This document shows positions 8,815-60,800 of a stretch of DNA of 64,000 nucleotides, in pieces. The stretch is from Amoebophrya sp. A120 (lineage: Eukaryota > Protista > Dinoflagellata). Below the pieces are notes generated by a model. The model had not been told where the DNA came from. It ran no database searches and worked only from the letters and a program-made list of their open reading frames with translations. The stretch spans positions 5,215,700 to 5,279,699 of the forward strand of contig CAJINV010000003.1 of NCBI GenBank assembly GCA_905178155.1. Direction: 5' to 3'. Position 1 is the stretch's first letter; each line of letters opens with the position of its first letter. The position numbers were made by a program, and so were the translations under genes.

Positions 8815-10521
<1,707 letters not shown>

Positions 10522-15449: not shown

Positions 15450-18400
15450 ATGGTTGAGAGCGTGCAGCCGGCCGTCCCGCCGGACCACGACCTGGAGATG
15501 GAAGCAGCGAAAGCCGCGAGCGAACCTTCTGGGTTTGAAAAACTGGCGACGTTGCACGCAGCTACCACCTCCTCCCTCGCTTTGCCGGTAACAACTAAAC
15601 TCCACACGACGACTGGCGAAACTTACACGGTTGTGCCACAGCAGAGCCAGGAAGTGGCTGCCGTTTCCCAAATTATGAGCACTTTTGCCCACGACCGCAA
15701 ACTTCGGGAGATAGTCTCGCTTGCAACGGAAAAGTCCCCTGCTTCCGCGGCGTCACCGGTTGTTTTCTCGGAGGATTACTTCGAAGCGGTCTGTTCCGCA
15801 CTACCACACACTGACCTCACGACAGGTATCTTTGTTGCTGCGGGACCGCCTTTGCGTGGCGCGAACCGTGCGGATTTCGAGTGCGCCGCGGCAATCCATG
15901 GTGCTGGTCGACCAGGAGGACCAACAGGAGGTACTACGGAAGATGACACCGAGACCACGACGGTTCCCGACTACACCGGAAAAGATGTTGCGGATCAGAC
16001 CGACTGGTTCTTTCGTCCTCCGCAAGTGGCGTCCCTTCTGTGGGACGAACGCATCACGGGGTTTCGCTTCGACGTTCGGGCATTTCTGCGCTCCCACGGG
16101 GCGCTGAGCTTTCAAGAAATGGTTACCGGTAAGGTGCTGGACCAATTTCTGCTCAAAGCGAACGAGCACCTCTGGCAAGCGCAGCAGGAAGACGAGGACC
16201 AGTTCCTGAACAGCAAGTACTTTGTAAAACCAACATCCGTGGCGTCGCTCTGCTCATCTACTCCGGACCACGGGTTGTCTCCCAGTCTATTTCCGGGGCT
16301 TTTCGTCGGTCCCGGCGGGGTCTTCAGCCTGTTCACGCGGAAAGAATTGGCTGTGAACGCCCTCGTCGCGGAAATTCTCAACCTGCTCGCACGAAATCCG
16401 CCCAAGGCACTGATTGAGGGGGAGCGGGCCGCGATTGCGGCGACGGAAGCGGAACGACAAGCGGGGCCGGTGGTGCTGCTCGAGCGACAGCTCGCCGAAC
16501 TGCAGCAGTTGATCGGTCAGGAGGTAAAACAAGGAATCAAGTTGAGATCATGGAATCAAATTAACTGGAATCAAGTTAAACCTGGAATCAAGTTAAGTAC
16601 ATGGAATCAAGTTAAACCTGGAATCAAGTTATATAGAATCAAGTCACTACCTGGAATCAAGTTGAATGGAATCAAGTAAACCACCACAACTTCACATCCA
16701 TCAACCCTTCGCCTCGCAATGCCTCCATGGAAGAATCTATCTGTTGCTCTTTTTGTGTTTTGTGATTGCCATACCCTCGTGCCTAAAGTTCTCCGCTATT
16801 TTTTTTCAAACGCGGCCACTTTTATCAAACGCGTCTGGCTTTTCTTCCTCTGGTCGATAGAGACGTCGCGGATAATGTTAGAGCTAAGCTTCGCGCGCTT
16901 GTCTTGTTTCACGACCCTCTTTCGAAAGTTGTCGGGGCTTTCGCCTTCCGAAGTTCCCGGGGTTTCATTTGTGCTTCCTTCCTTCGAAGGAAGGGTGTGC
17001 GTCTCTGGGGATTCCGCGCTTATTTCGCCTTTCCTCGGAAGACGAAGATCCATCCGTCCCTCTCGGAGTTCCATGCCCGCTTCACCTCCTCTCGGGAGAC
17101 CCATTGCTCTCGGGATTCCGTTTTCATTTCGCCTTCCTGGGACTGGTGTGTGTCAGTCTCGGAGGATTCCGCTTCGCCTTCCTGGGGAAGGTGCTGTCTC
17201 AGGGGACTCCATTTCGCCCTCCTGTGGAAGGTGTCTCGGGGCCTCCATTTCGCCTTCCTTGTACTTAGGCAGGTCTCTCCGGGGATTCTGTTTCGCCTCT
17301 TTCGGAAAGTATCTTGGGGGATTGGCAGGGATCTCCTTCCTGGGAGTTCCATCTTGTCTTCCCGATGTCCGGGGTTTCCGCCTGCAGCACTAAGGGGCCG
17401 AGCCGTTGCGTCAGGTGTTTGGCATTCGCCAACTTCGGCCCCTTCGCCTTGGGGAGATCCGGGGTTTGTACCTTCAGAAGCGCCGAAGGAAGCTTTCACC
17501 TCCGGAGGCTCCGAAGCTTCTTTGGCTTCGGCAGCCTCGGATATCTCGCCTTCGGAAAGCCCTGGCGGGTCTCTCCCCGGCGGAAGGTCCGCAGCTTGAT
17601 TGCCTTTCGGGGGAGTTGGAGTCGTTTCTTTACTGGCTGGCGCGAAGCTTTCGCCATCGACTTCCGATTGAATGGCCCGAGCTTGTTTACACCTCTTGCG
17701 CGACGTGGATTGTTCGGGGTTTTTCTGTGCCCGGGCTCGCCGAGGCGTTTTGGATTCGGTTTCGGAGGGCGCGAGTTTGCCGCCCTCCGGGGCTGCGCGC
17801 GTGTGCTTACAGCTTGTGCGCCGGGGGCCCCGGGTTTTTTCTTTTGTGTCCCGGGGCCTCGTCACATCCACGCCCCGGGGGCCCGGAACATGGCCCGTCG
17901 GAAGGCGGGCCGGCCAGCCTTCGGTAGAGGTAGGCGGGGGGGCCCGGGGCATGAAGCTTTCCTTTGCGGAAAGGCCCGGGGTTTTGTCTTCCGTGAAGCC
18001 AGGAATTGAATTCCGCTCGAGCGACAGCTCGCCGAACTGCAGCAGTTGATCGGCCAGAAACAGGACCGCGATGTGGCCCGCTTGCAACAGGAGGTGCGGC
18101 GCGAACGGGAGAAATTGGCAGAAATGGAGGAAAATCCATTTGGACCAAACAGCGACCCAGACAAGCAAATGCACGTCGTCGCGTGGAAGCAGGACGCGTT
18201 ATCGCAAGTCCAGGCCGAGTTGGATAAACTGAAGGAGCAGGAACTTGCGCTATTGCACCAGATCGACGATGTCGCGGAAAAAATGAAAATGGCAGCCGGA
18301 ACAACGGACGAGGGCGGGGCGCTGGCGAGCGAAAGTGCGGACGAAAACGATGCGCAGCACCTACCTCCGTTTTCTTTTCAAAGCGACTTTCGCTTGTTTC

Positions 18401-21400
18401 ATACGTACGCATGCGACGCTGGTTCATCTTCGCAAGACACCCCGACCGCAGATCTGCCTGCAAATCTCGGTGGTGCGCTGAACCGCAAGGAATTCAGCAT
18501 CTACCTCTTGCGCGCCGGCGAAAAGATTACGGACCCCCGCGGTTTTCTCGAGGGGATCATGAGCGGGGCGGCAGCGCTCTACAGCCGATCGGACGCCTCG
18601 GTGAACGTGCCGAAGCACAGCATGGAAATCTCGTTCTCGCGAAAAGCCCCCCAGGCCGAGCTGCTGTGCGTGTCTCCTTCGGCACCGGATGCGGAGGAGC
18701 AAGGAAAAATATACTATCCGCTCTGGCGACGTTGCTCGACAAACACAGAGGTCGTCAATGACCCAGTGCTCTTCGGAGACGGTAAGTGCGAGTTATTCTT
18801 GAACGTACACAATGTGTATGTGATAAGTTGTCCATGTGATACTAGTTCGCAGGCAGAATGAAAAGAAAGCCTGCGACATCTTTGCTTGACGTGCAGTTAG
18901 TATCGCAACGCACTTTCAGATGCTGTTTTCGACGTGCCGGATCACTGGCTGGCCTTGCGAGCAACGAACGGGCCGCTGCGGTTTCAGGTAGGATTTTCGG
19001 AAAGCGGGCTCTTTCACGGGGCGAACACAGCCGCGAACTTTTTCCTCGGCTTACGACACAACGCACTTGAGGTGTCAGATTTACTGCTGAAGGAGGAGGC
19101 GTTGCAGTGTCTGTCCCTCTTGTCGGCCTGCTTGCTCTCCACGCTTGTCTATTGAGAGGAAAAATCCCCCCTCCCCATATTGAAAAGGCATATTTCCGAA
19201 AATTTGTGTTGCTGATTTGAGGTCACAAATCGCGTTTGTTTTGCAAGAAGACAAGTGCAGAAGCTTCCGCACCATTATGGAAGCACTTTGTCATGCTGTT
19301 GGGCTTAAAGGGCCGCCGCTTGCCATGCTGAACAACTAGACGCATACGCCCCTCCCTAGCTTGGGGATCTGACCGCAGTGCTTTCCTGCAATACAAGTCG
19401 GATTTGTGTACGCAAATCCAGCATCTTTTTGGCTCAAGCCGTTTTGTCTTGTGGCCCATTTCCCACTTTAGAGACGGGGCCGCACCCCCGTAAGATCAAC
19501 TCGTCGGACTCATCGTGGAGATCAACCCCCGTGAGATCCAAGATCCGTAGAGGCACTCTGTAACAGGCACCAGGTGCGGCTGGTAGACTTTTAGACTCAC
19601 TCCGGGTAAGTTCCTAGTAATTCAAAGCAAAACAAAAACGAAGACACATCTGCCCTCCACCTGAAGCGCGCACGTGCGCAAAATGCTTCGGTGGCTCCAG
19701 CGGGCGTTCGCCCGGCTCTTCGTCTTGTCACCAGCGGCGGCGGACGGCGCATCTACTTTTGGTCGTGAACAGAGTACAATGACTCCGCAAACACAAGTTA
19801 GCGAAACGGACGAGGTGGCCGCCGGCACTCGCTAGTTGTGGACTCCATCCCCGAGCTGCCGATGGTGGATGAATTCTGCCGCCCATCTCCGAGTCACGAG
19901 GATGCCGCGTCCACTAGCGGATCGCCCTGCTGCGCTGGAGATCAGGGACTTTTATTTATTGTTTTCGTTCGTCTCACACTCACTCGCATGGATTCGATTC
20001 GTAGATCATACTAGCACCTGCACCATATCCAAGTTTATTTCTTTTGTATGTGTTTTTTTTTTCAGCCATCCTAAAACAAAGTCCGTCTGTGTTGTAGCAG
20101 CGGGTTGTCTTCTGGCCCTCCTGGTAACCGCATTCGATATAACTGACCTCAGGCTTGTCGTGGTGGCTGTGCGAGCAGCGGCTGTGCGCGGCTCTTTCCT
20201 CCTGCGCGGTGCGGCCTTCTCGATGCGGACGGGCCTTGAGGCACAAAGGTGGTGGTGGTGGTGGTGGTGGTGTTGACGGGATGGCTACGGAGATGGTATT
20301 CGGGTTGTCTTCATCGGATTTTCTTGCCGGGGGTACCGGGGCTGACCCATCTGTGTCAGTGCGCGGACCACGCCATCAGCTGTGATAGCGGCGCCCCATC
20401 TGCGGCGTTCGGTGTCCCCCGTGCGCCGGGTCCTGCGCGGTGCGACATTCTCGGAGTGGCCGAGCTTTGCGGCACCAAGTTACCATCTCCGAGTGCGACA
20501 CCAGGGTGGAGGTCGTCTCGTGGAGGGCGTCATCCGGCTCTGGCCACGAGTGGTGGTGTCCAGCGTGATGCGCTGTCTGTTCGACATCGCCCGCAGTTCT
20601 CCGTCACAGTGTTGTTGCTTTCGCAGTTGCTCTTCGAGATGCAAGCTGCGCTGGACGATGACGAGGTGGAGCAGCAGTTTGGGACGCGATTCCGTTTCAT
20701 TCGGCTCCGAGCTACATCGAGGTCTCAGTCTCACGCGCGGCTAGCAGGCGGGAAAGGACTCTCCGATATCGACACCGGCTGCAGACAGGCAGAGTGGGAA
20801 TTATCCACTGCCCATTCTTCATGCGGTCCTCCTGGGGTCTCTGGGGCTGTCCCTTCTGTGACAGTGCGCGGACCAACCCTTCTGCGTTGATAGCGGCACC
20901 CCTTTTGCGGTGTTCAGAGACCTCGGGCGCCGGTTCCTGCGCGATCCAGGACGCAGCGGAGGCAAGACAATGGGGTGGCCGGTAGGAGGGTGAGGAGTTG
21001 CCGCTCTACGCTTACAGCGGACGACGGTACCTGGTGGGCTCGTCACGTCATTCCCCGGATGCTGGATCAGGCAGCTCGGCCACGGTACTAGATCACATCA
21101 GTAAGTCGTCTTTGCATCTGCCTCTCTTTTCTGATTAATTTTCGTTTGTAGTTGCTCTGTGTGGTAGGTTTGCATGGTTACTTTTTGTTTGTACGTAGGT
21201 TTGCATGTGCATGCGTGTCGATGAATGATATCGAAACCTATGCCGCCATCCTGCGGGACGGCGGCGTTCTGGCTTTCCAACTCTATCCTCCCCAGGACCG
21301 TCAGCCCCGCCTCCATCTCGATTGGTCAGCGACTGCGTGTCCGAGCGATGGGTTGCTCTGGAGGCCAAAACCACTCCGCGTCCGATAGTTGCTCTCTCGT

Positions 21401-23015
21401 TTGGGAAAACGATGGCGATATGGCTTACGTCGGGGCTATGGTACGAATTTACGCTCTTGGCGGTCGGCTGTCTCCGGGTGTCCTTCCCAAGCTGTGGCTC
21501 GCGGCGTGGTGCGTTTGCCGGTGCCGACCCTTTTCTACGGAACGCTGTGGTGTCCTACTCTTCTGGCGGTCCTTCAAGAGCCCTTTCGCCTTCATCCCAG
21601 TGCTGTCGTTGACAGACCTTGGGCTGATAATCCCGTTGCAGGAGGTTCGGTCCTTGGCGCGTCTTCGCCACCGGCAGGAGTCAGGATGGGTAGATGGGTC
21701 TCCTCGTTGTTGCTTGAGCTTGCTCAGGTCTTCGCTGCTTTCGGTGGCTGGTGGCCGCTCTTGGGTTTCAGGTGTGGGTCGGAGTTCGTTTGCCTCTCGT
21801 CAGTTTGGACGGAGTGCTCTCGTTCAGCCACCCCCCGGCGGTCGACTGTCGGCGATCTGGCCCCCCCAGCTCATGATTGCAGTGTTGGCTGGTGATGACG
21901 AGGTTGCGGACAGTTGACTTGTCATCTGTCTGGTTCGCCCATTTTGCTGCCACGACTGTTTGGTCCCCGGTCCCCTGAGGCGGGGGGATACGGGTTACCT
22001 GGTCGGGATGTCGCGCGGAAGGTGTCTCTCACGTCCCTAGCTCTTCGTACTCGCCGCTGAGTACAGTCGAGCGCCTTGGTTGATCGCCACACTGTTTCAT
22101 AGTGCTGAAACGACCCGGCTTTCACTAGGGGGAGCATTCGTACACTTTGTGCCCTCCGGGACTATGCCTCTGCTTCCGTCTAAACTGAGGGGTCCACTTA
22201 TCCCTCTCGGTATTCGGTCGCAGGGAAGGGTTGCCGGGGTCTCCCTCGCATCGGTTCTCGATGTCGGGTGTGAGTTTGTGACTGCGGGGGCAGTGGTTGG
22301 CTTAGGTTTGCGGAGTACATCTGAAAAGAGGCTCCCATTCCTTCTTCCAGGTAGCGATCCTAGATCGCCGCCACGCGGAGCCACCCCCGTATTTCACCCC
22401 CAGGGGGTTGTGGACCTGGCAAAGCCGATGAGTTCGGGCTGCTGACTGTTCCACTTCTTCCGAGCGCGATCATGCTACGCCTCACGCAAATCCAGCATCA
22501 GAAACTTCGTTTTGATATGGGGAGGGGGGATTTTTCCTTTTGATATTGTCTTCCAGAACGCACCATCCCTCCGAGCGGGGAGATCAGTACAACCCTCGAC
22601 GCCACGAGCAGCTACACTGGGAATGGCACGCCTGCCCATCCTGCCGCTGTTACAAGCAGCGCTGTACTACGATGTAAAGATGTACCCAGTTTGCTTCGGC
22701 GCAGCAGCAGAGAAAGAGAACGATACCCACAGCCTGCCTCCCTTTCTCCTCGAAGTCATTCTCTGGAAACTGCGAGAACTCTCGCCGGAGCATTCCTACG
22801 AGGAGGACCACTTCCAGCTACTGTTGGAGACGGCCTACCCGAAAGTTTTGAAAAGTACTGGGCAAAACCGGGAGAGCCATTTGGACCGACTGAAGCGCAT
22901 GCAGCTGTCCTTTTTGCATTCGGTGCCGAAAACCAACAAGCACCTCTCGGCTTCCAAACTGCGGCGGGCCATCGACATCTACGAATCTTGCACTAGCTTG
23001 CGTTCTCGGACGTGA
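15450..23015 (+). CDS. Unknown protein interrupted by a 1.5-kb insertion-intron and a 3.4-kb nested introner
   Basis: Exons 15450-16523, 18058-18781, 19079-19149 and 22551-23015 join in one frame (..LIGQE|KQDRD.., ..FGD D LLLKEE.., ..STLV|FQNAP..). No recognised domain. Confidence 0.7.
16521..18014. mobile_element. 1.5-kb insertion flanked by a 43-bp direct repeat
   Basis: gctcgagcgacagctcgccgaactgcagcagttgatcgg(t/c)cag at 16478-16520 and 18015-18057 (1 mismatch). Interior is compositionally distinct (TTCGCC/TTCC-rich) with broken minus-strand ORFs. Confidence 0.8.
16533..16678 (+). repeat. Array of 9 GGAATCAAGTT-like units with 4-8 nt variable linkers
   Basis: Read directly; lies at the left end of the 1.5-kb insertion. 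Confidence 0.9.
19426..22483 (+). mobile_element. 3.06-kb nested insertion with 16-bp TSD, starting with a DinoSL 3' fragment (probable retroposed sequence)
   Basis: acgcaaatccagcatc at 19410-19425 and 22484-22499. TTTTGGCTCAAG at 19427-19438. No intact long ORF recognised. (GGT)n tract at about 20248-20272. Confidence 0.8.
19427..19438 (+). other. Spliced-leader relic (last 12 nt of DinoSL DCCGTAGCCATTTTGGCTCAAG)
   Basis: Exact 12-nt match at the insertion boundary, followed by CCGTTTTGTC (8/10 match to CCATTTTGGC), a possible second relic. Confidence 0.75.
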
Positions 23016-24214
23016 TTGCGGAGCGGACCACTGGATGTTTTCAGTATCTGTAGGTCGTGGTGCCAACTCTTCACAGAAGAGCCTCTGTGTAAACAAAAAT
23101 ACAACCACCTCCACGCCCCAGTCGGGTATCAATACGCGTCAATGATTAGCAACTGTCCCCGGAAAAAGTTCCGTTCTCCTCGGCTGCTTTTTCATGCCCT
23201 TGCGCGCCGCGACGGCCGTTCGGACGTGGCATGACGCAAATTCGTGTAGATTACTGCAAGAAACGGCGTGGGAATCTCAGGTCATTGATTTTGCAGAGCT
23301 ACTAGCGCCCTTTAGATTCATTACCACGCGAGACCGAAGCAGCTGCTCATGCGCATCAGCATTTGTATGTCGACTATGTGTTTCGTGCGCACACGCAGTA
23401 CGCTAATCCGGTCGAGATGAAGGAGTTTGGACTGCAAAAGTCTGTCGAGCGAAAATCGGTCCAGAAAAGTCGGTGGTGTTTGTCAGTCACTTTGTTTCAG
23501 CACGCACCGTCGGACAAATAATTTCACAGTCTTCGTTTTGATAATTACTTATCTGATTTGGATGATTTAGACGTGCGCCAGAGTCTGTGCTGTATGGCCC
23601 TGCTCTCCCCACCCCCATTACAAATCAAGAGAAATTCTGCCGACCGTAGACGTACTCTATACTCAACACATTATTTTTTACCATGCGCATCTCTTGGACG
23701 TCGAGGTGACACGATACGATACCAGATGACCGTTGCCAGTGCAGTTAGGTCTCGTCAAACATTCTAGACACGTAATTTTTGTAAAAAGACCGAAGTAGTC
23801 TGATAGCGAATAAAGCAACTCGAGTTATCTTTCTGCCTTTCTACACATAACGATAAGTAGTACGACACAACAAGGCGTTTATTTCCGTCACAGCCTCACT
23901 GCCTTCCATCGCGTGTGTAAGGCGTCTACGGTCTCTCAATCTCAACTAGGCAAATATTCGCAATGTCGTGTCATCAGCCAGGAAGGACTATGAAAAGCGA
24001 CAACGCGAAATGGAGCTCCGGGCATCCTCCACACATTTGCGCAGCGACAAGCAGTTAGTATCGCTCTGTCACGAGGACGGGGTAGGTTTCGGTTTCTCGC
24101 GAAAGAACCTCTACCTAGGGCACGCTGGCCTATCGGAAGTGCGTACTTAGACTGCAAAGCCAGGAAGCGACATAGCTACTAGGACGCCCGGCAGGAGACC
24201 ACCCTGCGGTGATT

Positions 24215-28777: not shown

Positions 28778-31700
28778 ATGTCCAACGATACCCCTGTATG
28801 GAACGAAAAGGCCGCTTGCAGCTTAACGTGGAGATCGTAGCGCGTGAGGCACAGGCACCGCACTTGCATTTCTAATGACCGCCTTTGTTTCATTTGCCTC
28901 TGTGGCTGCGAAGCTATTTTCTCAACAGAGTGAGACTCAGAAAGAGAAAAGATAAAGATCAAATTAATGCAGTGAAGATCTCTCTCTCTGAAACAAGAAC
29001 GATAGCGAAGCGAAAGCGGTGCAGCTACGATTTCCCGGCAGTGCGAATGCAAGCGGCCCTTTGTGCTCTTCCATAGCAGACAACCGGAGAAGATCCACAA
29101 GACCCGGACCAGCAATCTTCCCACAGCAATAGTACGAGTGTGCAGAGCCTGCGGGACCTCCAACACCAGAAATGGCTGCAGAAGAAAGAAGCGGCCGCGG
29201 CCGAAAAAGCCAAAGCAGCACCCCCGCCCGCGGCGGCGCACCAGCCGCTGACCGGGAATTCGAGTGCCTCCTCTTCCTCCTCCAGCAGCGCGCGACCAGC
29301 GTCAGCACAAGAGGCGGACCACTCGATGCGGAGTCCGATATGACGGATAAGTTTGTAATGCACCCACAGCCCCACAGAGTACAAACTTGATCCACTCCAA
29401 TAGTCCAAAGATCTAGATAGCCTAAGGACATGAAGACGTAGGAAGATCCTTAGTGATGTAAACAGCGTGAAGAACTAGAGGAAGACACTGAGACAAGATG
29501 ACGAACATATACACACCCAGGGCCCTTGAGCTAGGTTAGACATAGACATTCAGCATTGCAGTACTAGTAGTCATGGCGCTGTAGATGCGCATAGTTGTTC
29601 TACCATTGTAGTTTGTAGTGCGTACTCCGTGGGAAGTTTGCGTGCCTATGCAGATTTTCCCTTTACATCCGAAGCTCGGGGCGCGTTCCCCGGTGCGGCC
29701 GTTGCGGGAACTAAGCAATCCGAACGCTGAGTTTCTGAGAAAGGTCCACATCTTGCCCCTGGGGCAAAGCCAGAGCGCGCCGAACGACATGCTGCAGTTT
29801 TTGAAGCCCGCACTGAGCAACTTCCGGAAAACAAAACGCGTCCTCTACACCGGGATGGTGTTTGAGCACAATAGTCGCGACTTCATTGTCGTGAAAACAG
29901 ATCTATCAACTGTAAAAATGTCGGGGTCTGGAAGATTCCGGGATTTGTGATGCATAATTTGTATGATCCATGATGCATGTAATGCATGATCTAGCATCAC
30001 AGATTTTTAGAGGGCTTCCTGATGCCTATTCCGCATGAGAAATGCCCTCTCCGCGTAACACAAACTGGGCTCCTGTTGCGGGTCACGCAATACAGATTTT
30101 TTTGGAATCCAAAGACAGCATGACAAGTTGAAATCTTCCAGGGTTCCAAAGACAGCATGACAAGTTGAAATCTTCCAGACCCAGACATTTTGCAATTCAT
30201 AAGATCCAGAGGGCGGCAAGGACCCAGGGATACTTGGGCCCGACACCGAGTACTACTTTACAGGGCCCGCAGTGGCGCGGTTCAAGCGCATTCAGTTTTC
30301 CGCACTGACCAATGTTCTGAGGCGCGTAAGTGGATCCGACCAGCTCGAAGAAGATGAAGAGCTGAGCGGCTACAGCACGGAGAGGCTATTTCAAGAGATG
30401 ATCGCGCCTTACTTTCAATCGCATTCCGATAACGAGAAAACCGGCGGCGTCTTCAAACTCCTCAACGTCAACGAGAGTATAACGATCAACGGCGTCCAGT
30501 TTGTCGTGATGGCAACCGACCCGGAGGCTTGCTACGGTACTAAGTCCTATACGCTTAGTTGTAAAGTTTGCCGATCGCGGGCGCTTGAGGGGTGTGCGCT
30601 GACAGGAAGCGACATCTCTTTGCGGACGTGAAGGACCGCGAACGCGGGAATCGCGTTGGCAAGGACGAGTAGCACATCAATTGTTCAGGCAGTGTCACAC
30701 GACCTAGGAGTGAGTATACATCGTATTGACCACTGCATCATATCCGTGAACGAAATCCAAATCTGACACACAGGCATCGTCGATAAGGATACACTTATTT
30801 TTGTGGACAAGGATGAAACGCCGGAGTACCGTCGGATACACATCGTGCCTTTCCAAGACACGCTACCCCGGAGCTACCAGTATTGCCTTCTTCTCTTTTT
30901 GGTCACGTGCAGTTCGTTGTTGAAACTATTTGCCTGTAGTTTCGCCCAGTTCTTGATTTGTTTTTGCGGTGTCAAAACCCAGCAAAAAAAAGTAAGTAAG
31001 TAAAAAACTCGGCGCAGGTACGACGTCTTCAACGACTATTTGAAGCCGTACTGCAAAGCGCACGCGAACCAGCGGTATCGGGTAAATGACGTTTTCACCT
31101 ACAATGCGGTGCAATTTAAGGTGGTCTGCTGCGACCCGGAGGAGCTTGGTATCATGTCTTCGCGTAGATGATTCAGATTCTTCAGAATTTCTTGTTGTCG
31201 CTAATTTTGTTGAACAAGGCACTGCTATCGACATTGGTGAGATCGCAGAAAGACACTTCCGGCAAAAATGCTCTATTTTCCAACACTGCACAGGCGGCAC
31301 AAACACTACTCCGGGCAGCGGGGCGCGCATCGGGCGAAATACCACTGTGTATTGCGAAGGAGTGCTGCACCCACAGCTTCGTGATCTGCTTCCGCCAGAA
31401 CTCGTTACGCAACTCGCCTATCTACCGCCCGGTCTACAGATGCTGCTGCTCTCGACGGACGCAGTCGGTGGGAATCAGGAGCTCTTCGAGAGGCTGATGG
31501 AAGTCCAGGATATGTTGCAACAAAGACGAGGTATGATAGATGATGAAGAAGCGGAGATGCATTTTCTTTATTTCATGTCGTTGCTTTGGGGCGCGAAGTT
31601 TTCGATCCACCTTTCTAAGTGAGCATAGATACCAGTACAAGGTGGAAATTTAGATCATGTGTACCACAACAAAGCAGGATCCTTTATGGCATTTTTCAAT

Positions 31701-32917: not shown

Positions 32918-34163
32918 ATGACGGACCCTGCGGAAGGCGAATTCGACATCAAGGGCGGGGGGGGGGAGCGAGCACCGAAAAACTCGGCGAGAAAGCACGG
33001 GTGCCGCAGTCGTTCGTGGAGACGGGGAAGAATAAGGTAGATACTGCGGAGTTAGCGTGAGTTTGTTCATCTTTGCCAAATATTCGACTGAATGCCAAGC
33101 AGAAGAGCATGCGGACATGATGAATGAATCACTTCCGAACCGCCTTTGTGTGATGCATAGATAAATGTGCGACGCAGCAAGCTTACAATCCGTGAAAAGT
33201 TCTTTGATCTACCAAAAACGCGGCTCGCAGGCATCAGCGGAATTGTACAGCGCCGCGAACTCGACTGTTGTCAACTTTTTTGCCAAAGTCATCAAGGACG
33301 AAACGGGGATGACCAGCTTGTCGGACCTCTTTTGCATGAAGTGTGCGATCGAAATGGAGGCGCTTAAGCGCGCCGGGGCGGACGGAAATGGCGATGACAG
33401 GGTGGACTACGACGAAAAACGTGCGTTCTGCTCGCGCTCATCAGCGTCCGGAAGCGACGGCTCGTTTCTCCAGGTACAGTTTTCGCTAGTGCTAGCAAAA
33501 GGAAAAGTCACCAGATTTGTCTTGCAGTGGCGCACTACAGGCATATGCCAAGCCTGATTCGCGAGGTTTTGACGTAGGCGCATGGAGTGACAGATGTCTG
33601 CGCTGCAAGCCCAACAGCACCACAAACCGCCTGTATAATGTGGCGGACCCTGCTCTTTCTAGATTTTCTCTCTTGCGAGACAGACAGGATTTCTGGCCAC
33701 AAATCTGCGACGCAAATTTTCAGAGCATGGGCGCGTTTTCAATATGGGGAGGGGAGATTTTTCCTCACAATAGATGCAATTTATTTTTGTGGGCCATCGA
33801 TTCGAGTATACTTACAATATTGATATACGAATTTAGCAGCCTACGTTCTTGCAGCCAGTGTAAAAAACCAAGAGAAGATCCGAAAACGGAATGAAATGAC
33901 GACATTCTGGGCAAAGTCTCCATGCCAAAAAAAAAACAACAACATGGGGCTGGTCAGTCCCCAATCCAACCACGCCCGGCCCAGCAACCTTCATCTTCTT
34001 GGATGCCCTCTTTATTTGGTTGCTGTGGCAGACAGCAGCCCAATACAACGAGTACTCCAACTCCGGCAATGAAGCTGAAGAACCTGAAGTGGTGATTACT
34101 CGTGGGAGCAGTATGGAGGACATGCGCCAGCAATTGAGCTTACCTTTTATTTTTCCAACTTGA
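32918..34163 (+). pseudogene. Possible degraded or misassembled gene with Cys pairs and a hydrophobic C-terminal segment
   Basis: Coding-like pieces (32918-33037, 33165-33473, 33840-34163) that I cannot join without stops or frameshifts; G and A homopolymers lie near the breaks. Confidence 0.3.
33493..33772 (-). mobile_element. Degenerate inverted family A copy inside a GT-AG intron
   Basis: 33688-33772 matches the reverse complement of the family A left end. Left end decayed (tagcaaaaggaaaagtc). Flanks agtgc/gatgc. Confidence 0.7.
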
Positions 34164-43237: not shown

Positions 43238-46200
43238 ATGAACGGGAGGCATCCGCATCAGCACAATACGGGTCTCAGCTGGCTAACGCCTTCGGAGGAA
43301 ACGTTCCTGACTCCTTCTCCGGATGATGGGTCTTTGCGGGTCCCGGTAGCCGGCGGTAGTAAAGCCGCCTCGTCTTCCTCCACGGCGGCGCAGCACAAAA
43401 AGCAGTGCAACGGGGGCAGAGCCAACCCTTGGAGCGCCGAAACCAAGCAGGTGTTCGCGTTCTATCCGCCTACAAGCGGCGCCGAGGCTGCGACCCATGG
43501 TAGGGGCAGCAGAGACAGGCTCAGTGCGGCGAGCCGCGAGATCGAGAATTCCCGGAGAAAGCACAAGAGCGGCGCGCACACCGGCGAGAATAAGCGAAAT
43601 AATCCGGGGGACGACGGTATCCAATGTGCAGATATTTTGTGTCCGGTTTTGGAAGGATGCTGCAAGGTTTGATGGCACGCTTGTCTGGTATGACTGAAGG
43701 GCTTGTGATGCGTGTCAAAGAGGACTCGATCACCGTTTTGCTTGTCACGCAAAAACGTAGTTTGTCATGCAATGCTCGTCAACATGCGGAAATAAACGTG
43801 CTCGTGCATTACAGGGCAGATATTCACATTTCTCATGCTCTTCTGCTGTGCAACATTACATATCTAGGGTATTCAGTATTCACAACCCAGCATTACAACA
43901 AGTTTCCAGGCACATTTGCAATGCATAGACCGCACGTTTGATAGCAACGGCTTCGTGGACGAAATCCGGGATCGGAGTCTGATGGGGCAGTCGCTGTTGA
44001 TGCGGAAGCGCGCCGAGGCGCGCAACGCGCAGCCCGAAAAGCCGGTCCCCACCTCGATCTACGGGGAGGACGACCCGCTGCTGCAGTCCGAGGCCGGCCT
44101 GGGGCAGTTCGACCAGCAGCGCTACCTCCCGCTGGACCCCAAGCAGTTTGAACCGGACGTCCTGGCGGCATTGCGGAAAGCGCAGCGGACGGAGATCCAG
44201 AAGCTTGGCAAGTATTTTGCCATCGAGGACTATCGTACGAAAAAAGTGTTACAGTTAATACACATCGTGTTGCAGACCAAGCAAGACAGACAAGCTCTGT
44301 CATGCCAAATGTGCATAGGAGCCTGGCTTCGTGCGTGTTACTTATTTTCCCGTTGGATTTCTGCATTGCAAGTTCATCTAGCGAAATTCGATGTGTTGCT
44401 GCATTGACAACAAATGCGTAACTGCAACAGCACTTTTTTCGTGTGATAAGGACGCCGACGAAGTAGCGGCGGCGCTCGCCGCTGCGGTCAGCGCCGACGA
44501 AAAGCGGAATCTGTTGCTGAACGCACCGGAGCTGATTCCCCAGGACGACGTCGACTACGATGTGGAGGACGCCCGGTTGTATCCGCCAGAAGATGACATC
44601 AAATTTGGGAAGAAAACGCGTCCGCGCACCGCCCCGGGGCCTGGTCGTGGAGCGGGTCAGCCGCAGCACTTCCGCGACAACAAAAAGAAAGCAGCGGGGT
44701 CCACCTCCTCCGTGGGGGCGGGGCCGAGCGCGGCTCTCTCGGAAAAAAGCAAAGAAGAAACGATGGACGCGGCAGCACGGTACGCTGCCAAAGCGGAGGC
44801 CTATCCCGAGCACCATAACTACAGCTTCGAGGACACAACGGATCTACTGAACTACAAATTTGACCCCGAAGCCGGGGCCGACCCGCCAGACTTGGTGCGC
44901 AGAAACATCCTCAGCGAAGCGGTATTTGTTTGGTCCTCCCGGTATTATGATCTACAACTCAAAAATCGCGACACGAACATAGTATTTATGCTGATGTTCT
45001 TGAGTCGGAGTCGCGGCTGGTTGCAGTAGTATTAATTGCAGACGCAGAAGCTGAGGCTCTGCATAACATATCAATCAGCGGACCTGTACTATGTAAAGTA
45101 TGCAAAAATGTTGTTCTCTTGTGCTTGTTTTTGTACAGTTTTGTTCTTCGAGAAGTCTCTCTACCATTCTGGAAAAACATGAGATTTTGATCATCCGAAC
45201 AGGTGTACGCGCACAGCGATCGTGCAGAGCTCTGGTTGGAGCACGCGGAGAAGGAGGGTATCGACCTGTTCGCCCGTCCGGAGGGCGAGTATGTGCGCCC
45301 CTTTGAGCAGAAGCCGTTGGATCGCGACATGAACGCCACGACCTCGGGCAAGATGGTGCGCATGCCTGTGATGCGGCCCGCGGTGATGCGGCGGCTCCAG
45401 AAGCGGTACTGCAGCCACCACTTCGCGGCTGCGCGCGCCGTGCTGGCGCAGAAGCGGGAGGAGGTGCGGGGGCTCAAGGGTGTGAAGAAAGCCCTGACCT
45501 CGCAGGGCCGGGTAGAGATGGACCGCGCGCGGGAGGAGCTGCGGGGCGCGGAGGACGACGACGCGGAATTGAACGACCTCGCGAACGCGGGGGCCTGGTA
45601 CGTGCTCCAGCGGCGCGCGGAGCTGGACGAAGTGGACGAGGCGGAAGCGAGCAAAGCAGGCACCAACATCGGCGCGCGAGGAGAGCTACACGGCCCGAGC
45701 CTCGGTACGAATCCGAATCTGTGGAGCGACGAGCGGTTCTTCGGCGGCGCAGAGGAGGTTGAGGAGAAACGCTGGAAGGAGGCGGAGCCCGCGCCTCCTG
45801 CACCGTCGACGGCAAACAAAATAACCGGCGGCAGGGGCCGGGCGTACCGTGCCGGGTCGCCCGGAACGAGAGTAGACGGAGGACGCGGTGGAGTGGACTC
45901 AGAGGAGGAGGCCACCTTCGAGCAGACCGACCGGTCCAGTACTACATTAGAGGGGCAGACAACGATAGAGATCCCCTCCGCCGGGGTGGTCGTTGCGCCA
46001 CAACCGCGGCCGCGCCCACAAAGTGCGGTTGTCTCGCAGCAGCGTGGTCCCGCGCCGGGCGAAAGTAGACCGGCGAGTGCGGCTGCTCGCCCGAGAAGCT
46101 TCTCCGCACGCGCGCGCTCACCCAAGCATCAACCAGGCCGGGAGGGCGGAGGTGCTGCAAGGCCGCGAAAGCGCCCGAGCCGACACCCCCGCCGGCCCGG

Positions 46201-47639
46201 GTCTGCCACGGCGTACCGCCCGGGCTCGGCGAAAGATCCGCGAACGCCGCCGTCCGCCTACGAGGTGGTGCTGAACGTAGATGATCTACTTCAGCAGGTA
46301 GACGAAGAGGAGCTCGGCGCGGAGGAGTTTTTCGACGAGGATGTTGAGAGCGCGGGGCCGCCCTCGAGAAACATCACTTCTGCGGGGCAGCACCGCGCCG
46401 GTTCCACCACGGCCAGCGAGGAGCTTCGACGAAGACACAGCGAACTGCAGCGGCGTGGCGACGAGTACGACGGCGGCCCCACCGTGGCGGCAAACGGTGC
46501 GCTGGAGCAGCTGCGCGAGCCCAAGGACGTGCAGGCCCTCCGCGGTGCGGTGTCGTCGACCCAGGTCCAGGAGCGCGAGCAGGTGCAGGAGCAGAAGTAC
46601 GGGTACTCGTCCCAGCGCCGCCGGATGAAGTTGTCGGAGCGGATGAAGATCCCCATGGCGGTATCAAAAGGAAAAATCCCCGCTCCCCATATCGAAAAGG
46701 TATGTTTCCGAAAATTTGTGTTGCTGATTTGAGGCCACAAATCACATTTGTACTGCAAGAAGACAAGGGCAGAAGCTTCCGCCCCACTATGGAAGCGATT
46801 TGCCATGCTGTCGGCCCTAAAAGTGACCCTTTTGCCATGCTGAACAACTAGGCCCATACGCCCCTACCTAGCCTGGGGATCTGGCCGCAGTGAGTGCCCG
46901 CCTGCAATACAAACCTGATTTGTGTACACAGATCCAGCAGCAGAAGTTCCGTTTTGATAATATGGGGAGGGGGGATTTTTCCTTTCGATAGGCGGAGTTC
47001 CCGCAGCGGCCGTTGACCAGCGTGCCACGGCTGGACCAGATGCAGAAGCCGCCGACCCCACGGATCGTGGGTCGGCGGGTCCACAACGGGGTCACGATGG
47101 ATCCCGCCACCGGGCGCGAGTGGCACGGGGAACAGCCGAAGTTCGAACCGCCGCCGCCGCTGACCGGCACGCTCACGGACGGTTTTCTGAACCCGCGCAA
47201 GGCGGCGCTCCCGGAGCTGAAGGAGAAGGGCACGGGCGGCGTGGGCAAGAATTTTCAGCTGATTACGCCGTTGCAGCGGCGCGAGTGGTACGACTACTGC
47301 GCGTTCGCCGAAACGAATCTGGACCGCAAAGCGGCGGACCTCCGGGCACAGATCCGGTACCACCGGGATGCCATTGCCATTCATCTGCGGCGCAAGGAGG
47401 AGCAGAAGCGGCGCGCAGTCTGGGAGCAGCAGGCGCAGAAGCAGACTCTGCGAAACCGTGTGAACCAGGAGGGAGCGCACCTGCGGTCGCAAATCTCGTC
47501 CAAGCGGCAGCAGTCCGCAGATGAGAAGGAACGGGAGGCGCGCCAGCGCGGGGAGAAATTTGGATCTGAGAAGGAACGTTACGAAAAGATGAACGCTTTC
47601 TTCTCGCGCAACCAGAGGCACCTGCAGCTAAATCAGTAG
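43238..47639 (+). CDS. Large low-complexity/coiled-coil protein, unknown function
   Basis: ORF pieces join in frame after removing three introners and a GT-AG intron (about 44922-45202). Confidence 0.75.
43618..43927 (+). mobile_element. Diverged family B introner (310 bp), imperfect TSD GACGG/GACCG
   Basis: tatccaatgtgcag..cacatttgcaatgcata; body resembles the copy at 24414. Removal gives ..GDD(R/G)TFDSN.. Confidence 0.8.
44231..44448 (+). mobile_element. Introner (218 bp), TSD AGGAC
   Basis: tatcgtacgaaaaaagtgttacagtta / taactgcaacagcacttttttcgtgtgata. Removal gives ..FAIEDADEVA.. Confidence 0.9.
46662..46990 (+). mobile_element. Introner family A (329 bp), TSD GGCGG
   Basis: 31-bp TIR (2 mismatches). 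Removal gives ..KIPMAEFPQRP.. Confidence 0.95.
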
Positions 47640-54899: not shown

Positions 54900-57800
54900 A
54901 TGGATAGGGACGTTCATTCCGGCAGTTGCGCGATGGATATTGATTCTGTCGGTGACGATGCAGGTGCTCCTCCCAATAGGCGACCGGAGGAACAGGAGAC
55001 GAATAAGCGTCGCAAAATTGATGACTCTGGCTCAGCCGCCGGCGGAGCGAGTAGCGCTAGCTCTGAGCTCCCAGCCACTGTCGATGGTGTGCGTGCTGGT
55101 GTGACAAAGCTGCGACAAGTCTGCGTGTCGCGGCTCGGTCTGGATGATGCGACCAAGAAGAAGATCGACGGCCTCATCGAGGATTTTGCGGAGTTTTCCG
55201 AGTTGGACGCCACAGATTTGGCCTCGCTGGTAAAAAACTTTCAAGATTGGGCTGCGTCGCACCGACCGGGGGCTCGCGAAGAGTTCGTCCGCTTTGGGAA
55301 ACTTTGCGCTCGCGTCGCAAGTGCCACCGGCAACGAATGCTTCACCGAGCTCTACCAGGCGGCGTGTGTGGAGGAGAGTTTGCTGGACCAGTGGGGAAAG
55401 ACCACCACCGCCCGGACCTGCCGGAAGTGGCGTGAGAGGTTCGAGGCACTCTGCGCCGGAGATCCGCACGGAGCACAGTGTGTGCTGCGGGAGATTAGAA
55501 GAAGCATACTCAGCAGCGCCTCACCTGGATCCGAGCTGCAGCAGGTTGGCCGCACGAGTGACGAGACGCTGCTCAGTTCCATCCTAGAAAAACAAAAAGG
55601 AATAAGCGCGACACTGTCTGAGGACCACGTCAATGTGATAGTCGAAGTTGAGAAGAAGCTGACGTACGCAAGCTTTTTTGCCGCTGCACCGTCTGGGCCG
55701 GACGATTTTCGGCGCCACCAGGCAATATTGAAGATTCTGCGAGAGTTGGAAATTGGTATAGAGGCCCGGGAAGCGGAAAAGGTGAATGAGGACTTGATTC
55801 CCGAGTTGAAAAAGCTTCATCCAGGGTTAGCCCGGAAATGGGTCAGTGACGCAGCAAAGAAGCATGCGTGGGTCCAAGCGGGCGAGGATTTTCACGACAG
55901 AGTTGTCAGGCAGCAGAAATTGTGTGCATTGCAAAAGCGATTCTTTTGTTTCGCGGAAGTAACACTTTCCGATTACAATCGCGTCACGCACCGTTACTCT
56001 GCGGAGCAGATGCGGCAGGTATTGATTCATGTATATAAATAAGTCTAAGTACTGAGCAGGTCAGGCTATTCCTGCCGCTCGTCGGAGGAGGGAGTAGTGC
56101 CGAGCCCAGATCGAAATCATCATCGTCATAGCTGAGAACCCTATGTGGGTGGAAGAAAAAGTGACATGCCGATTCGCATTCCTACTGACTTGATATCAAA
56201 ATGAATATAGGTAAATCTAAATTTGTTATGTATGTCGGAGGTGGAAAATGAAAATGTGCATTTAGAAATGCTTTGCTTCGGTCTGTGCCCAAGGAAAGTT
56301 TCTCACTGCTTCAGCGTTTTTTTCGAAACATTCAACAGTGCATCCGCGCCTGGTTAGCGTCGCCGCAGGCTTCATTCAAGACGGAGGTGCTACCTATAAT
56401 TCTCAACATTTTGAAGCGCGGAGAAGCTTGGGACGAGTTTTTGGCCGTCGGCATCGACGAAGTCAAGACTTTGCAGGACGAGGAAGGGCGCGTCGGACTG
56501 TCGGCGTTGTGGACGGCGAAATCGTTATTCTGCATTGTTTGCGAAAATGCGGAGCCCGGTGTTCGTTTTCGATTGCTAAGGGATTTTCGCGATTCTCTTC
56601 CTCTTCTGCATCCGTCATACCATAAGAGTTTTTCCGGATCAGATGATGGCACCAGGAGTGGTACCAGTTTGCTGACTTTTAATGCCGACATAAGCGCACT
56701 GATTCCGAAAGGTGAGTGCAGGGGCGCCGTCATCTCATTTGGCATCGGAGAAAACTCGCCCCCGCTTGGTAAAAGCGGCATTCTCAACACGCTCTTCCGA
56801 TGCAACTTCGAGGAGTCATCCAGAAACTTTGCGACGTATGGAACCTGCGACGTTGACCTCGGTTTCTCTTTCAAACCGCGGAGAGATTTGGTCTTCGGGG
56901 ACGTTACTGGGAGTTTGTCTTTCGAAGATGGGGACGCTGAGCAGGCCGCGGCGCTGCTGTCGTTCTTCCCGTCGTGGCTGGTTCACGTGCAGGCTGGGGA
57001 AGTTGACAAGGTGGAAGCTTTGCTGCAGTCTTTGAAGAGCGGAAAACTTTTTAAGTGTCCGCAGTCAGTGCTGGTTCTTATCCGTGACACAGATTCTTTC
57101 CAGGAGGCTCCTTTGCTGCGGGTCCGTGCCAACGGCGACGAAGGCAATGTCACCGACAATGCGTTCTTGGAAAAGCTGGTGCGCGTTGAAACGGTATTGA
57201 AGGAGGTGCACGGAGTGAAGCACGCCTACTGCGCAGGCATTCGCAATCTTACAAAACTTGCTCCCCGCGAGCGGGAAAATGTTTTGAAATTCGAACTGCA
57301 GCCGTTGCTGCTCTGTGATGTCATGCAGTCCACCGACAACGAACGCGGAACGGGAGAGCCATACGGCATCGGTGACCCACAGGTTTTCCACGATCGCGTG
57401 CAGAAGATCGCGCCCAAGCACCCCTATTTCCGCGCTGACCTTGTCCTTGTGGCCAAGGTGATGAAGACGCTCGAGTCCTTTCGCGATGATTTCTACAACC
57501 CAAAAGCGCTCGCCACGCGTGAGCTGTTAGCTCAGCTTCGGCGCTGTCGGCAAAAACTGGAAAATCCGAGCGCCACCTCGGACGCGATTGAAAAGGCGCG
57601 AGCAGAAGAAAAGCGGTTCCTTGACACCCTCGCTCAAACGAAGATGACGCAGCTGTTGGAGCATTTCCAGAGAGTACTGCAGTCTCCGAGCCGGGTTCTC
57701 CTCATGTCGGTTCTAGCTGAAAGAATTAAGCGCTTCTCCGACGATAACGTTGCGGAAAAAATCGAGGCGCGGAGGCGTACTAATGACGAGCGCACCGCAT

Positions 57801-60800
57801 TGTACGCGGCGGGAGCGCAACCCGGTGACGCAGGGGAGCGGAAGTACGCGGCGCAGATGGACAAGCTTACCAGTAAACTCACAACTGTCACGAATGACAT
57901 CGAGCGTCGACGGATTTCAGTGGAGCTGTTGTGGCGGGAGCTTTTGGTTTTTCATGAGCATGGCATTACCAGGAGTAAGTCTTTGCCAAAGAATCCGGTG
58001 TCCGAGCTTTGCAACTTTTTGCGGGTAGGAGAACCTTTCGAACTCATTGACGGCGACACACTGCAGATTCCGCACCGAACCTTGCAAGAGGCCTTCAAGC
58101 GGGTGGCGAGCATCGGGGCAGGCGATGCGGTGGTTCCCATGAATTCGCGGGAGTCGTTGCAAAGTGCAAAGCTCGCGGGTAAGAGAGTCATGGTGATTTC
58201 CATTCTCGGGCCGCAATCTTCAGGGAAGAGCACGCTGCTCAACTACCTGTTTGGCTGCAAATTTAACACCGCGAAGGGTCGGTGCACGAAAGGCGTCTAC
58301 GGGAGTTTGATCGAGATTACTCACGAGCACTACGACTACCTCCTCATCTTAGATACCGAGGGGCTGCAAAGCCCAGAGAAGCTTGACCACGAGTTCGATC
58401 GGAAAATCACGCTGTTTTGTTTGGCGGTGAGCCATTTTGTGATCATCAACGTCGCGAAGGACATGAATGCGCACATGCGGGACTTGCTGGAGATCTGTTT
58501 GTTTTCGTTGGACCAACTGCAGAAGGCACGCATGGCCATGCCGACGAACTTCATGGTCTTCAACCAGCACTCAGGTGACACCGCCGACAAGTCCGTATTT
58601 ATGGACCAAGTGAAAGGTATTTCCGAAGCTATCATTGCGGCCAAGCCAGAGGCGGTCGACGCAGCGCGCGCGATGCAGTTTCCCAGCGAGCGGATTAAGG
58701 TGCTCCCGCTGGCCACAAATTCTTTCACGGTGCCGAAAGACCCGGCGCGCGGCGTGCACAGTGACTGGAACCAGGAGCGCCCGGCGACCAAGTTTGCAGT
58801 GGAGGTTGCGCAGTTTGGTAAGGAGATTATGGACCTAGCTTTCAAAAGCACGGAGCGAAGAGTTGCCACACCAAACAGCGTCGCGCCTGCCGGCAGAAAG
58901 GTTTTGCACCAGGAAGACCTTGAAAGTTGGATCCGGATGGCCACCGACAACTGGACCACCATCACGGCTTTTCCAGACCTTTACCGCTTTGCGAATGTAA
59001 AGCTATTGAAGGACCACAAAAGGCTCACCAACATCGCTCAGGACAAGGAGCAGCACTTCCTGACCTCGTCGGCCGCCCAGCTGCGGCACGTGAAGGAGAA
59101 GAGGGATGCGCTCGCAGAGTTGGTGGGTAACGAGTCGCAGTTGTTGAATCGCGACTATTTCCAGAACGTCTCTCTGAAGGTGGAAAATCGAATTCGGGGC
59201 ACATATTTTGAGCACGTTTTGGAGAAAATCAAGCGCGACTTCGACGTGGTGTGCCGCGGAGAGCAGTTTGACAAGGACCTGATCGAGCAGTTTCTGAAGC
59301 ACATCCGGATACTTGTGAAAAATCAAGCCGATTCGATCGTCGGCGCTGCGCACTCCGAACTCAAGCAGAAACAGATGAACCAGAGCAAGCTGCGCGGAAA
59401 TGACAAGCTCAATGACCTAGAGCGAGACTTGACGAAATCGGCTCTAACGCAGAAATCCAAGGCGCAACGGACGAAGTTTGTCAACGATAAGTTTGAAGAG
59501 GTGTGGAAGAGTGTGATAGATGAGCTTGAGGGGGATTTGTCACGCGGTGGCGACGTGTCTTCCGCGCAGTGGGAAACGCTAAAATCAAATTACTCGACAT
59601 TGCAGACTTTGCCGAAGTCTCTCGGGGGACAAAAAGAAACAGAGTGGGAGCTTCAAGCAAAGTTGCACAGTGCCGATAAAGCTGCTGCGGGGAAAAGAAG
59701 ACCGGCCAAGTCCGAGTCTGCAATCGGACCGCAGTTGATTGAGCGTCTGCAGCAGAAAGATTTCCATTTCCTCACCCGTGCACAGGGAAGTGCTCTGGAT
59801 GCCGCTGCGAAGAGAGGTTTGCAAGGGATAAACGAGCTCTTAAGCCGGTCCAGCGAAGGAGGCACGCTGTACACCATCAACGTCTTTGATCACTTTGACG
59901 TTTTTCTGGAAACACGCACATGCGTCCTGGATATCGAGAAGCATATCAACTACTTCGAATTGCGAAATCAACTCGAGCATCTCGGCCGCCTCACGGGTAT
60001 GTTTAACAGTCAGGAAACCGAACGTCTTGCTCAGTTCACTGTTATTCGCAACCAATTTTCTTCCCTTGGGCTGTGGATGCAGTCTGAATTCATCACGAGC
60101 ATTGAAAACGTTTTGCGGGAATCAGGTTGGAAGGACTATGTTGGTCTCGAAGGTGAACGGGTCGCAAAAATTGCGGAGATACTGTCCTCCTACTCGTGCT
60201 TCAGTGTGACTGCGCCGGCAAGTTCTACTTCGACTCCGCAAAAGAGCAAGCAGACGGGGAGTCGTAAGACTTTAAGCCGCGTTCCCTTTATTTACCACGC
60301 CCGTGCAGACTCCCCGATCAAGCTGACCGTTCCGGCATGCATGGCGGAAAATTACCGACACAATACCTTTGTGCCGCCCATTTCGGAGATCGAAAGAAAA
60401 ACCCAGCATCTGCTCGCAGTCTCCAATCGGGGCCCAAAAAGAAGTCGCGCCTTCAAAAACCCCGATTACATAACGGAGGACCAGCTAGACGGAAGCCAAT
60501 GCTACTGCTTTCTTGCCAAGCAGGACGACGAGCACAGGCATGTGCTAGACGAGTTGCAGAAAGCGGATTGCCCCGTGCCCGCTGAGGAGATGCACCGTTT
60601 TTTCAAAGCCAACCAGAAGTGCTGGAAACGGTCGCTAACCACTCTAGAACAGCGACTGGATGAAGTTCTTCGTTGTGTCGACAGCACCAGCAGCGGTTGC
60701 AGCAAGCTGGTGAAACGTGTGCACGAAGTGGTGTCGACTTTTCTCAAAAACGACCTTGGGGGGAACTTCGCGCTCTTCGGAGTGGAACTGGACATGGATG

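Follow-up and report, generated by a model that had tools for sequence, protein, structure and literature searches.

A spliced-leader-headed insert, probably a non-autonomous retroposon, lies within a spliced introner of an Amoebophrya gene

We analysed a 64,000-nucleotide stretch of DNA from Amoebophrya sp. A120 (contig CAJINV010000003.1, positions 5,215,700 to 5,279,699; the whole stretch is called the window here, and positions are counted from its first letter). A gene of the window carries an introner within its coding sequence, and this introner is itself split by a 3,058-bp insert that begins with the 3′ end of the dinoflagellate spliced leader (SL). The features of the locus are as follows.

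15450-23015, plus strand: host gene, 839 amino acids, unknown function; identical to protein P0001 and 36% identical to the A25 protein P0002
18920-19149, plus strand: host exon upstream of the introner, ending ...STLV, after the canonical GT-AG intron 18782-18919
19145-19149, no strand: outer target duplication TTGTC, left copy
19150-19425, plus strand: family-A introner, 5′ part (inverted end 19150-19185)
19410-19425, no strand: 16-bp target-site duplication of the insert, left copy, ending GCATC
19426-22483, plus strand: the insert, a probable SL-headed retroposon copy, non-coding or decayed, 3,058 bp
19427-19438, plus strand: exact 3′ 12 nt of the dinoflagellate SL, with one extra T before it at 19426
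19439-19453, plus strand: probable degenerate relict SL, 10/15 against the last 15 nt of DinoSL
19427-19965, plus strand: 5′ region common to several diverged genomic copies
20751-21569, plus strand: single-copy middle with the unspliced GT-AG-like segment 21101-21151
21570-22483, plus strand: 3′ module common to near-identical and diverged copies
22477-22487, plus strand: tail unit ACGCCTC + ACGC, with this ACGC doubling as the start of the 16-bp duplication
22484-22499, no strand: 16-bp target-site duplication of the insert, right copy
22500-22545, plus strand: family-A introner, 3′ part (inverted end 22510-22545)
22546-22550, no strand: outer target duplication TTGTC, right copy
22551-23015, plus strand: last host exon, FQNAP... 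to the stop at 23013-23015

Previously, Amoebophrya introners were described as repeated families with inverted ends, 3-5-nt direct repeats and non-canonical splice ends (PMC7789003), and the outer element shares these properties. The unit 19150-22545 is bordered at both exon boundaries by the 5-bp direct repeat TTGTC, its 36-nt terminal inverted repeats match at 31 of 36 positions, and further copies of its family lie at 46662-46990, near 33.4-33.8 kb and in thousands of matching contigs. The relative near 33.4-33.8 kb (33440-33772) is reversed; only one inverted end was found there, and its left boundary is not fixed. Within the split introner, the longest exact repeat across the ends of the insert is the perfect 16-bp duplication, which encloses the 3,058 bp of 19426-22483; all coordinates that a first-pass annotation, made from the letters alone, had given for this arrangement hold. 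With the insert and one copy of the 16 bp taken away, the introner measures 322 nt, and over its full length it can be aligned with the intact copy at 46662-46990 (about 85%), a paralogue in which the same 16 bases differ at 3 of 16 positions. The introner thus entered the coding exon first, and the SL-headed insert came to lie inside the introner. All five mismatches between the inverted ends (19150-19185 against 22510-22545) are G-U pairs on the sense strand. Selection on this pairing at the RNA level is unsupported, ten introners giving 13 G-U against 10 A-C mismatches (p 0.34).

The host protein is identical to an NCBI-labelled Amoebophrya sp. A120 protein (P0001, 839 amino acids) whose model makes the STLV|FQNAP join proposed by the first-pass annotation, and the frame continues through this join to the stop at 23013-23015. 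The A25 protein aligns over 756 columns that span both sides of the join, and the host frames scanned gave no Pfam family. Removal of the enlarged introner is seen in one contig (record 9 of sequencing run X3, depth 30.7), which consists of 18600-18780, 18919-19144 and 22546-23100 with no letters between them, so that it joins 18780 to 18919 and 19144 to 22546, with 226 and 555 letters beside the second joint. It skips both the 3,401-nt unit and the canonical GT-AG intron, and because the latter is absent this contig is spliced RNA; that the run holds RNA is otherwise a guess by run classification, no run on record as RNA being among those listed as containing the stretch. None of the six equivalent registers of the 3,401-nt unit is GT-AG. 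A host transcript spanning the junction is thus on record, and the earlier suggestion that a non-canonical intron may be excised at ten times its usual length is supported by it. Run X3 also holds the single-copy middle of the insert with no differences, at a depth of 3-4, so the sample carries the insert. Three intron-like segments of the insert, at 19606, 19950-20067 and 21101-21151 (the last already pointed out as a GT-AG segment still present), remain unspliced in these low-depth RNA contigs, which may represent excised intron, pre-mRNA or DNA. Observations of this type cover 15 of the 35 rows for joints and 18 of the 209 for loose ends, and the contigs give neither expression level nor strand; a run of raw RNA reads under the same species label (X11) contributed one read, less than 90% alike, and is uninformative on the locus.

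An alternative is an assembly artefact, in which the host gene has a plain 322-nt introner and the insert belongs in another introner copy. Contigs of the unique flanks stop at 19175 and start again at 22521, none bridging flank and insert, and introner depth lies in the tens of thousands, so that a collapse is possible. We nonetheless consider such an artefact extremely unlikely, since the 16-mers on either side do not differ from each other and the two halves of the introner follow on in register as one element; moreover, if the window comes from the published A120 assembly, chimeric joins in it were broken with Nanopore reads (PMC7789003).

The host gene holds a second insertion at 16521-18014, about 1.5 kb between 43-nt direct repeats (16478-16520 and 18015-18057; 42/43). 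It contains a tandem array (16528-16682) and, at 17023-18012 on the minus strand, an open frame of 330 amino acids that gave no Pfam match; the insertion is without introner ends. In the P0001 model this insertion is removed while 10 duplicated residues stay in the protein; a retro-insertion may thus have given rise to a new intron here.

Measured against DinoSL as printed in PMC6050394, not A120's own truncated leader, the insert starts with the exact last 12 nt of the SL (19427-19438), as had been recognised in the first-pass annotation. Neither strand of the window has another exact match, and four other places match with 2 mismatches; by chance an exact match is expected at 5e-8 for a fixed position and 0.007 times in the whole window. 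The 15 nt that follow match the SL end at a level (10/15) that 98 of 127,986 window positions reach. In a metagenome collection the 20-mer that spans SL and relict occurs at 88 loci, none of which resembles the rest of the insert (E 0.01). Because 64 of these loci lie within 35 nt of a contig 5′ end and 21 of the 88 continue as a complete second SL, 19427-19453 is probably a leader followed by an older relict leader. The 5′ boundary is thus of the kind seen in DinoSL retrogenes, with a genomic SL at the edge of the insert. Two further occurrences were noted. At the metagenome locus L074 (minus strand, near 750-790) SL and relict directly follow an 18/19 match to the family-A inverted end, probably a low-complexity coincidence. 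In an estuary run (X9), a loose end before 19427 shows a full SL, with GCATC just upstream and a further SL-like stretch, the match length not being given; this was not counted as a copy with a complete leader, as it may be an unrelated dinoflagellate SL array.

At the other end the insert has no 3′ poly(A). Instead it carries about 1.6 copies of a 7-nt unit, and since another copy (record 31 of run X5) has an extra ACGCCTC, giving 2 units, the tail of the family is likely a short 7-nt repeat. The missing poly(A) had been listed as a caveat; the absence stands, but it loses its force as a weakness if the family ends in this way. We rejected a minus-strand reading, under which the T run would be a short poly(A), as the exact SL, the relict and the repeat tail are all on the plus strand. 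The 16-bp perfect target-site duplication is long, as expected of retroposons without long terminal repeats (non-LTR).

Dispersed copies with a common 3′ end, a further property of non-LTR retroposons, are indicated by contig depth. In the DNA-like run X1 the flanks have a depth of 40-42 and contigs covering 19665-19908, 19924-20364 and 20408-21604 (the last at 48.8) have a depth of 32-49 with no differences, whereas those covering 21669-22223 and 22286-22487 reach 292 and 491, corresponding to about 7 and about 12 copies, for which contig depth is a rough guide. Relatives diverged to about 85% are also present, as are repeats of parts of the 5′ 540 nt. The 3′ repeat starts sharply near 21570, and an A120 model (P0003) is 60% identical over 21576-21830. 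Because the longest contig listed for the P0003 record is 4.6 Mb and that for P0001 is 12.0 Mb, this relative likely lies on another scaffold than the host gene. The insert is one copy of a dispersed SL-headed family with no recognisable enzyme. Internal direct repeats were noted within it at 20200-20479 and 20322-20922 (49 nt at 80% and about 100 nt at 76-80%), which a diverged copy arranges differently.

This structure could also be read as a one-off chimera, a processed pseudogene in which template switching fused a decayed SL-capped cellular transcript with the 3′ end of an unrelated retrotransposon. The single-copy middle, the sharp start of the 3′ module near 21570 and the close match to P0003 beginning at 21576 would agree with this, as would the gene-like GT-AG segments and, at 19683, a short ATG frame, and SL retrogenes that keep introns are known (PMC6050394). 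Such an origin seems to us very unlikely because the 5′ 540 nt are multi-copy too, a second copy has its start at the identical SL base, following GCATC, and no parent protein was found in protein searches or Pfam.

The longest frame of the insert has 230 amino acids, and 0 of its 71 six-frame segments of at least 30 amino acids reach the Pfam cut-off, so that no reverse transcriptase or endonuclease is seen among them. Pfam likewise gave no reverse transcriptase in 28 of the 46 long frames of the window, and 11 frames judged by its cut-off gave no match. Protein searches found no reverse transcriptase or endonuclease and no longer homologues for the frames 21389-21892 and 20240-20887; the search of representative proteins returned P0003 plus one bacterial repeat protein, judged a chance match, and the Atlas search gave scores of 0.79 or less. 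There is no Rfam match in 16000-23000 (E up to 1), and the last 204 nt of the insert fold no better than shuffled sequences (z -0.52). Elsewhere in the window lie a tubulin gene (9005-10518) and a 1,650-amino-acid frame with a URGCP/GBP-like GTPase domain (56252-61201).

Several known classes of element were set aside on these grounds. An autonomous long interspersed element (LINE) is contradicted by the six-frame segments, and a classical short interspersed element (SINE) by the lack of a tRNA, 7SL, 5S or snRNA head in the Rfam search, the head being SL. A classical DinoSL retrogene with a protein-coding parent and poly(A) does not suit a longest frame of this size, no family match and no poly(A). 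Penelope-like elements have terminal direct repeats with hammerhead ribozymes; self-comparison of the insert gave no terminal repeat, Rfam gave no match, and one loose match to the hammerhead core pattern lies on the minus strand only. SLACS, CZAR and CRE are non-LTR elements that target SL genes, and an element of that kind (NeSL, CRE/SLACS) was rejected too, as the insertion site is in an introner and the duplication encloses the SL.

If the insert belongs to a family that moves by retroposition, its other copies should reveal where it lands, and we therefore looked at their junctions, covering 24 of the 72 rows for loose ends and 31 of the 123 for pieces, among which two loose ends lie at element ends. 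At the second 5′ junction the element sequence of X5 record 24 begins at 19427, with 7 differing letters and 1 gap over 142, after a flank of its own that ends GCATC; two variants of this record also occur in an X1 DNA contig at depth 43.8. Another copy bounded by the same SL base, as the first-pass annotation had called for, is thus at hand. The best match of this flank in the window is introner C, a weak match that 6 of 300 shuffles equalled. At the second 3′ junction, X5 record 31 has 7 differences in 414 letters and, after its second ACGCCTC unit, continues into sequence matching 22488-22513 at 23/26, which 0 of 100 shuffles equalled; by this sequence match it is another family-A introner struck at the same site. 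Among the junctions listed, 3 of 3 are at GCATC and 2 are clearly in family-A introners. The introner had been proposed as a safe landing site; the landing may reflect active targeting and not luck, both other junctions being at GCATC and one of them in a family-A introner.

Common sites could alternatively reflect descent, with a single insertion after which the composite of introner and insert multiplied, either by duplication or in the manner of a DNA transposon. In favour of this, the introner has kept both inverted ends and the second 3′ junction lies in the same introner family; the same concern was raised, and tested, for the retroposon SINEU-3 (PMC4494074). We judge such hitchhiking highly unlikely, since the second copy differs by less than 2% within the element (7/414) but at 3 of 26 positions in its introner flank, the tail length and the duplicated bases differ, and the flank of the second 5′ junction is unlike family A.

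An extended form of the junction motif, GCAT[CG]A[CG]A[AG][AG], is concentrated in introners: 31 of its 39 sites fall in the 2.8 kb of ten other introners and 8 in the other 57.8 kb. Introners at 24414, 24700, 29904, 38472, 38810, 41088, 44231 and 49825 have unrelated inverted ends and carry several copies of the motif on both strands. As a motif common to introners, it is a candidate site at which a transposase or splicing factor shared by them could bind. We also noted a 34-nt exact duplication inside an introner at 30108-30178 and a further motif-rich, introner-like stretch at 43600-43930. A rival reading keeps the same SL-headed family and does without true introner targeting: insertion would be broad, perhaps with a loose preference for GCATC, and copies would survive mainly where they are spliced away in a gene-dense genome. 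Of the 152 plain GCATC sites, 138 indeed lie outside introners, the flank at the 5′ end of the second copy resembles an introner only weakly, and most junctions of the family lie beyond the loose ends seen. Survival alone, however, would not predict a second 3′ junction at the same position of another family-A introner, within an element of 322 nt, and we regard untargeted insertion as unlikely.

In preference to these alternatives, we think it fairly probable that the insert is a member of a family of non-autonomous non-LTR retroposons, likely placed at an introner motif through target-primed reverse transcription, and that host splicing hides the insertion. The reading of the locus as retroposition, already put forward in the first-pass annotation, is supported. 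The series of events that we propose starts from the 322-nt introner that sits in the exon with its 5-bp duplication. An autonomous partner would have supplied an enzyme that bound the 3′ module of an RNA capped by the SL ahead of an older relict SL. This borrowed non-LTR retrotransposon enzyme, which likely cuts at the GCATC motif common in introners, would have made staggered cuts 16 bp apart in the subterminal motif of the introner. Reverse transcription may then have been primed on the 7-nt tail, aided by the 4-base match to the target, and would have stopped within the T run of the SL, with fresh trans-splicing presumably supplying the leader at each round. The outcome would be the state found on the contigs, where both introner ends are intact and the transcript is joined in frame without a GT-AG register. 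Splicing would depend on the paired ends and not on the intervening content, and introners would for that reason be tolerated targets.

Several observations weigh against this proposal. Targeting rests on three junction observations, namely this locus and one other end of each kind, and junctions outside the rows and pieces covered may lie elsewhere; the match of the second 5′ flank to introner C (p about 0.02) could be chance. The extended motif was defined after seeing the data and is absent from 2 of the ten introners, the GCATCA form is absent from 3 of the ten, and the density of plain GCATC in introners is only about double that elsewhere. The partner enzyme is assumed, the relict SL at 10/15 is weak alone, the tail has few units at this locus, and copy numbers share the roughness of contig depth. 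The sharp start near 21570 lacks the taper that plain 5′ truncation would give. No read or contig spans flank to insert, so that placement in this introner rests on assembly. The three intron-like segments of the element are unspliced in the low-depth RNA contigs, which may not stem from a transcript of its own, and no contig has a full SL joined to the element in RNA.

A bolder version, which we offer only tentatively, is that the family needs no promoter: it would target the introner motif, always be transcribed within host pre-mRNA and be spliced away harmlessly with the introner, and its RNA would be freed by trans-splicing at the AG that ends its integrated SL. Self-release of this kind fits the intact SL in both copies seen. 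If it were true, each cycle would renew the leader, and the motif would be one common to many introner families. The family would then be a hyperparasite of transposon-derived introns, with SL trans-splicing in the role of the ribozyme that R2 uses, and would show, as a natural proof, that only the paired ends are read when non-canonical introns are spliced without U1.

The nearest published parallels, taken from the parts consulted of the papers cited, are retroposons that target DNA transposons, namely SINEU-3 with Tx1-Mar in Mariner-N4_AMi of crocodilians and Tx1 in Tx1D of Xenopus (PMC4494074). These share with the proposed family a non-autonomous retroposon with an RNA-derived head, a long duplication and a non-autonomous DNA transposon as target, and transcription from flanking sequence was proposed there too. 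Tx1 is described as an animal clade, and target specificity was there defined as more than 20% of flanks in one target type (PMC4494074). The head here is a trans-spliced leader and not U1/U2, the element is 3 kb long with a short-repeat tail and not poly(A), and the target is a transposon-derived intron inside an exon, from which it is spliced out. Target-specific non-LTR elements and their safe havens have been reviewed (PMC4640811, PMC6719617). The SL-gene-targeting NeSL (PMC4640811) likewise has SL sequence adjoining a non-LTR element, but there the SL is that of the target gene, whereas here it lies inside the duplication as the first bases of the element, with no GT donor after it.

A genomic SL with a relict at the 5′ end marks a reverse-transcribed trans-spliced RNA, in which introns may be kept (PMC6050394, PMC5585692; Slamovits and Keeling 2008 as cited there). 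SL-tagged retrogenes are described in these papers as common in core dinoflagellates, their enzyme being unknown, and retroposition as rare in Amoebophrya AT5 (PMC6482013). The insert resembles such retrogenes in its SL plus probable relict, and differs in having no protein-coding parent, in forming a repeated family with a common 3′ module and in its 16-bp duplication. The copying enzyme was left open with Ty1/copia (an LTR type) favoured (PMC6050394), whereas the junctions of the insert look like non-LTR insertion. Trans-splicing of element RNA is not new in itself, since about 30% of transposon long reads in Hydra carry the leader (PMC12220107).

The outer element agrees with the introners of PMC7789003 in its inverted ends, direct repeats, non-canonical ends and family membership. 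That survey kept introns of 40-1000 bp, with a mean of 240 nt for non-canonical introns of A120, so that the present unit of 3,401 nt with a retroposon inside falls outside its range; the word 'nested' is absent from its main text. The parts seen of a review of transposon-derived introns (PMC11282704) mention no nested retroposon, and we found no introner-targeting retroposon in the published literature covered (open-licence papers). Each ingredient has precedent; the combination of an SL head, a family, likely targeting of an introner motif and a spliced, tenfold-enlarged non-canonical intron was not found in print within the same literature.

How Amoebophrya removes non-canonical introns without detectable U1 is an open question (PMC7789003), and an introner that is enlarged tenfold, and across which the transcript is still joined in frame, offers a natural test that shows how little the length and content of the interior matter. 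The 16-bp duplication and the repeat tail point to a non-LTR enzyme for the copying of SL-capped RNA, at least here. If the motif is aimed at, the family would have a landing site that does the host gene little harm, and if targeting is true, introners would join ribosomal DNA, snRNA genes and DNA transposons as safe havens, in this case a haven that lies inside exons and works through splicing.

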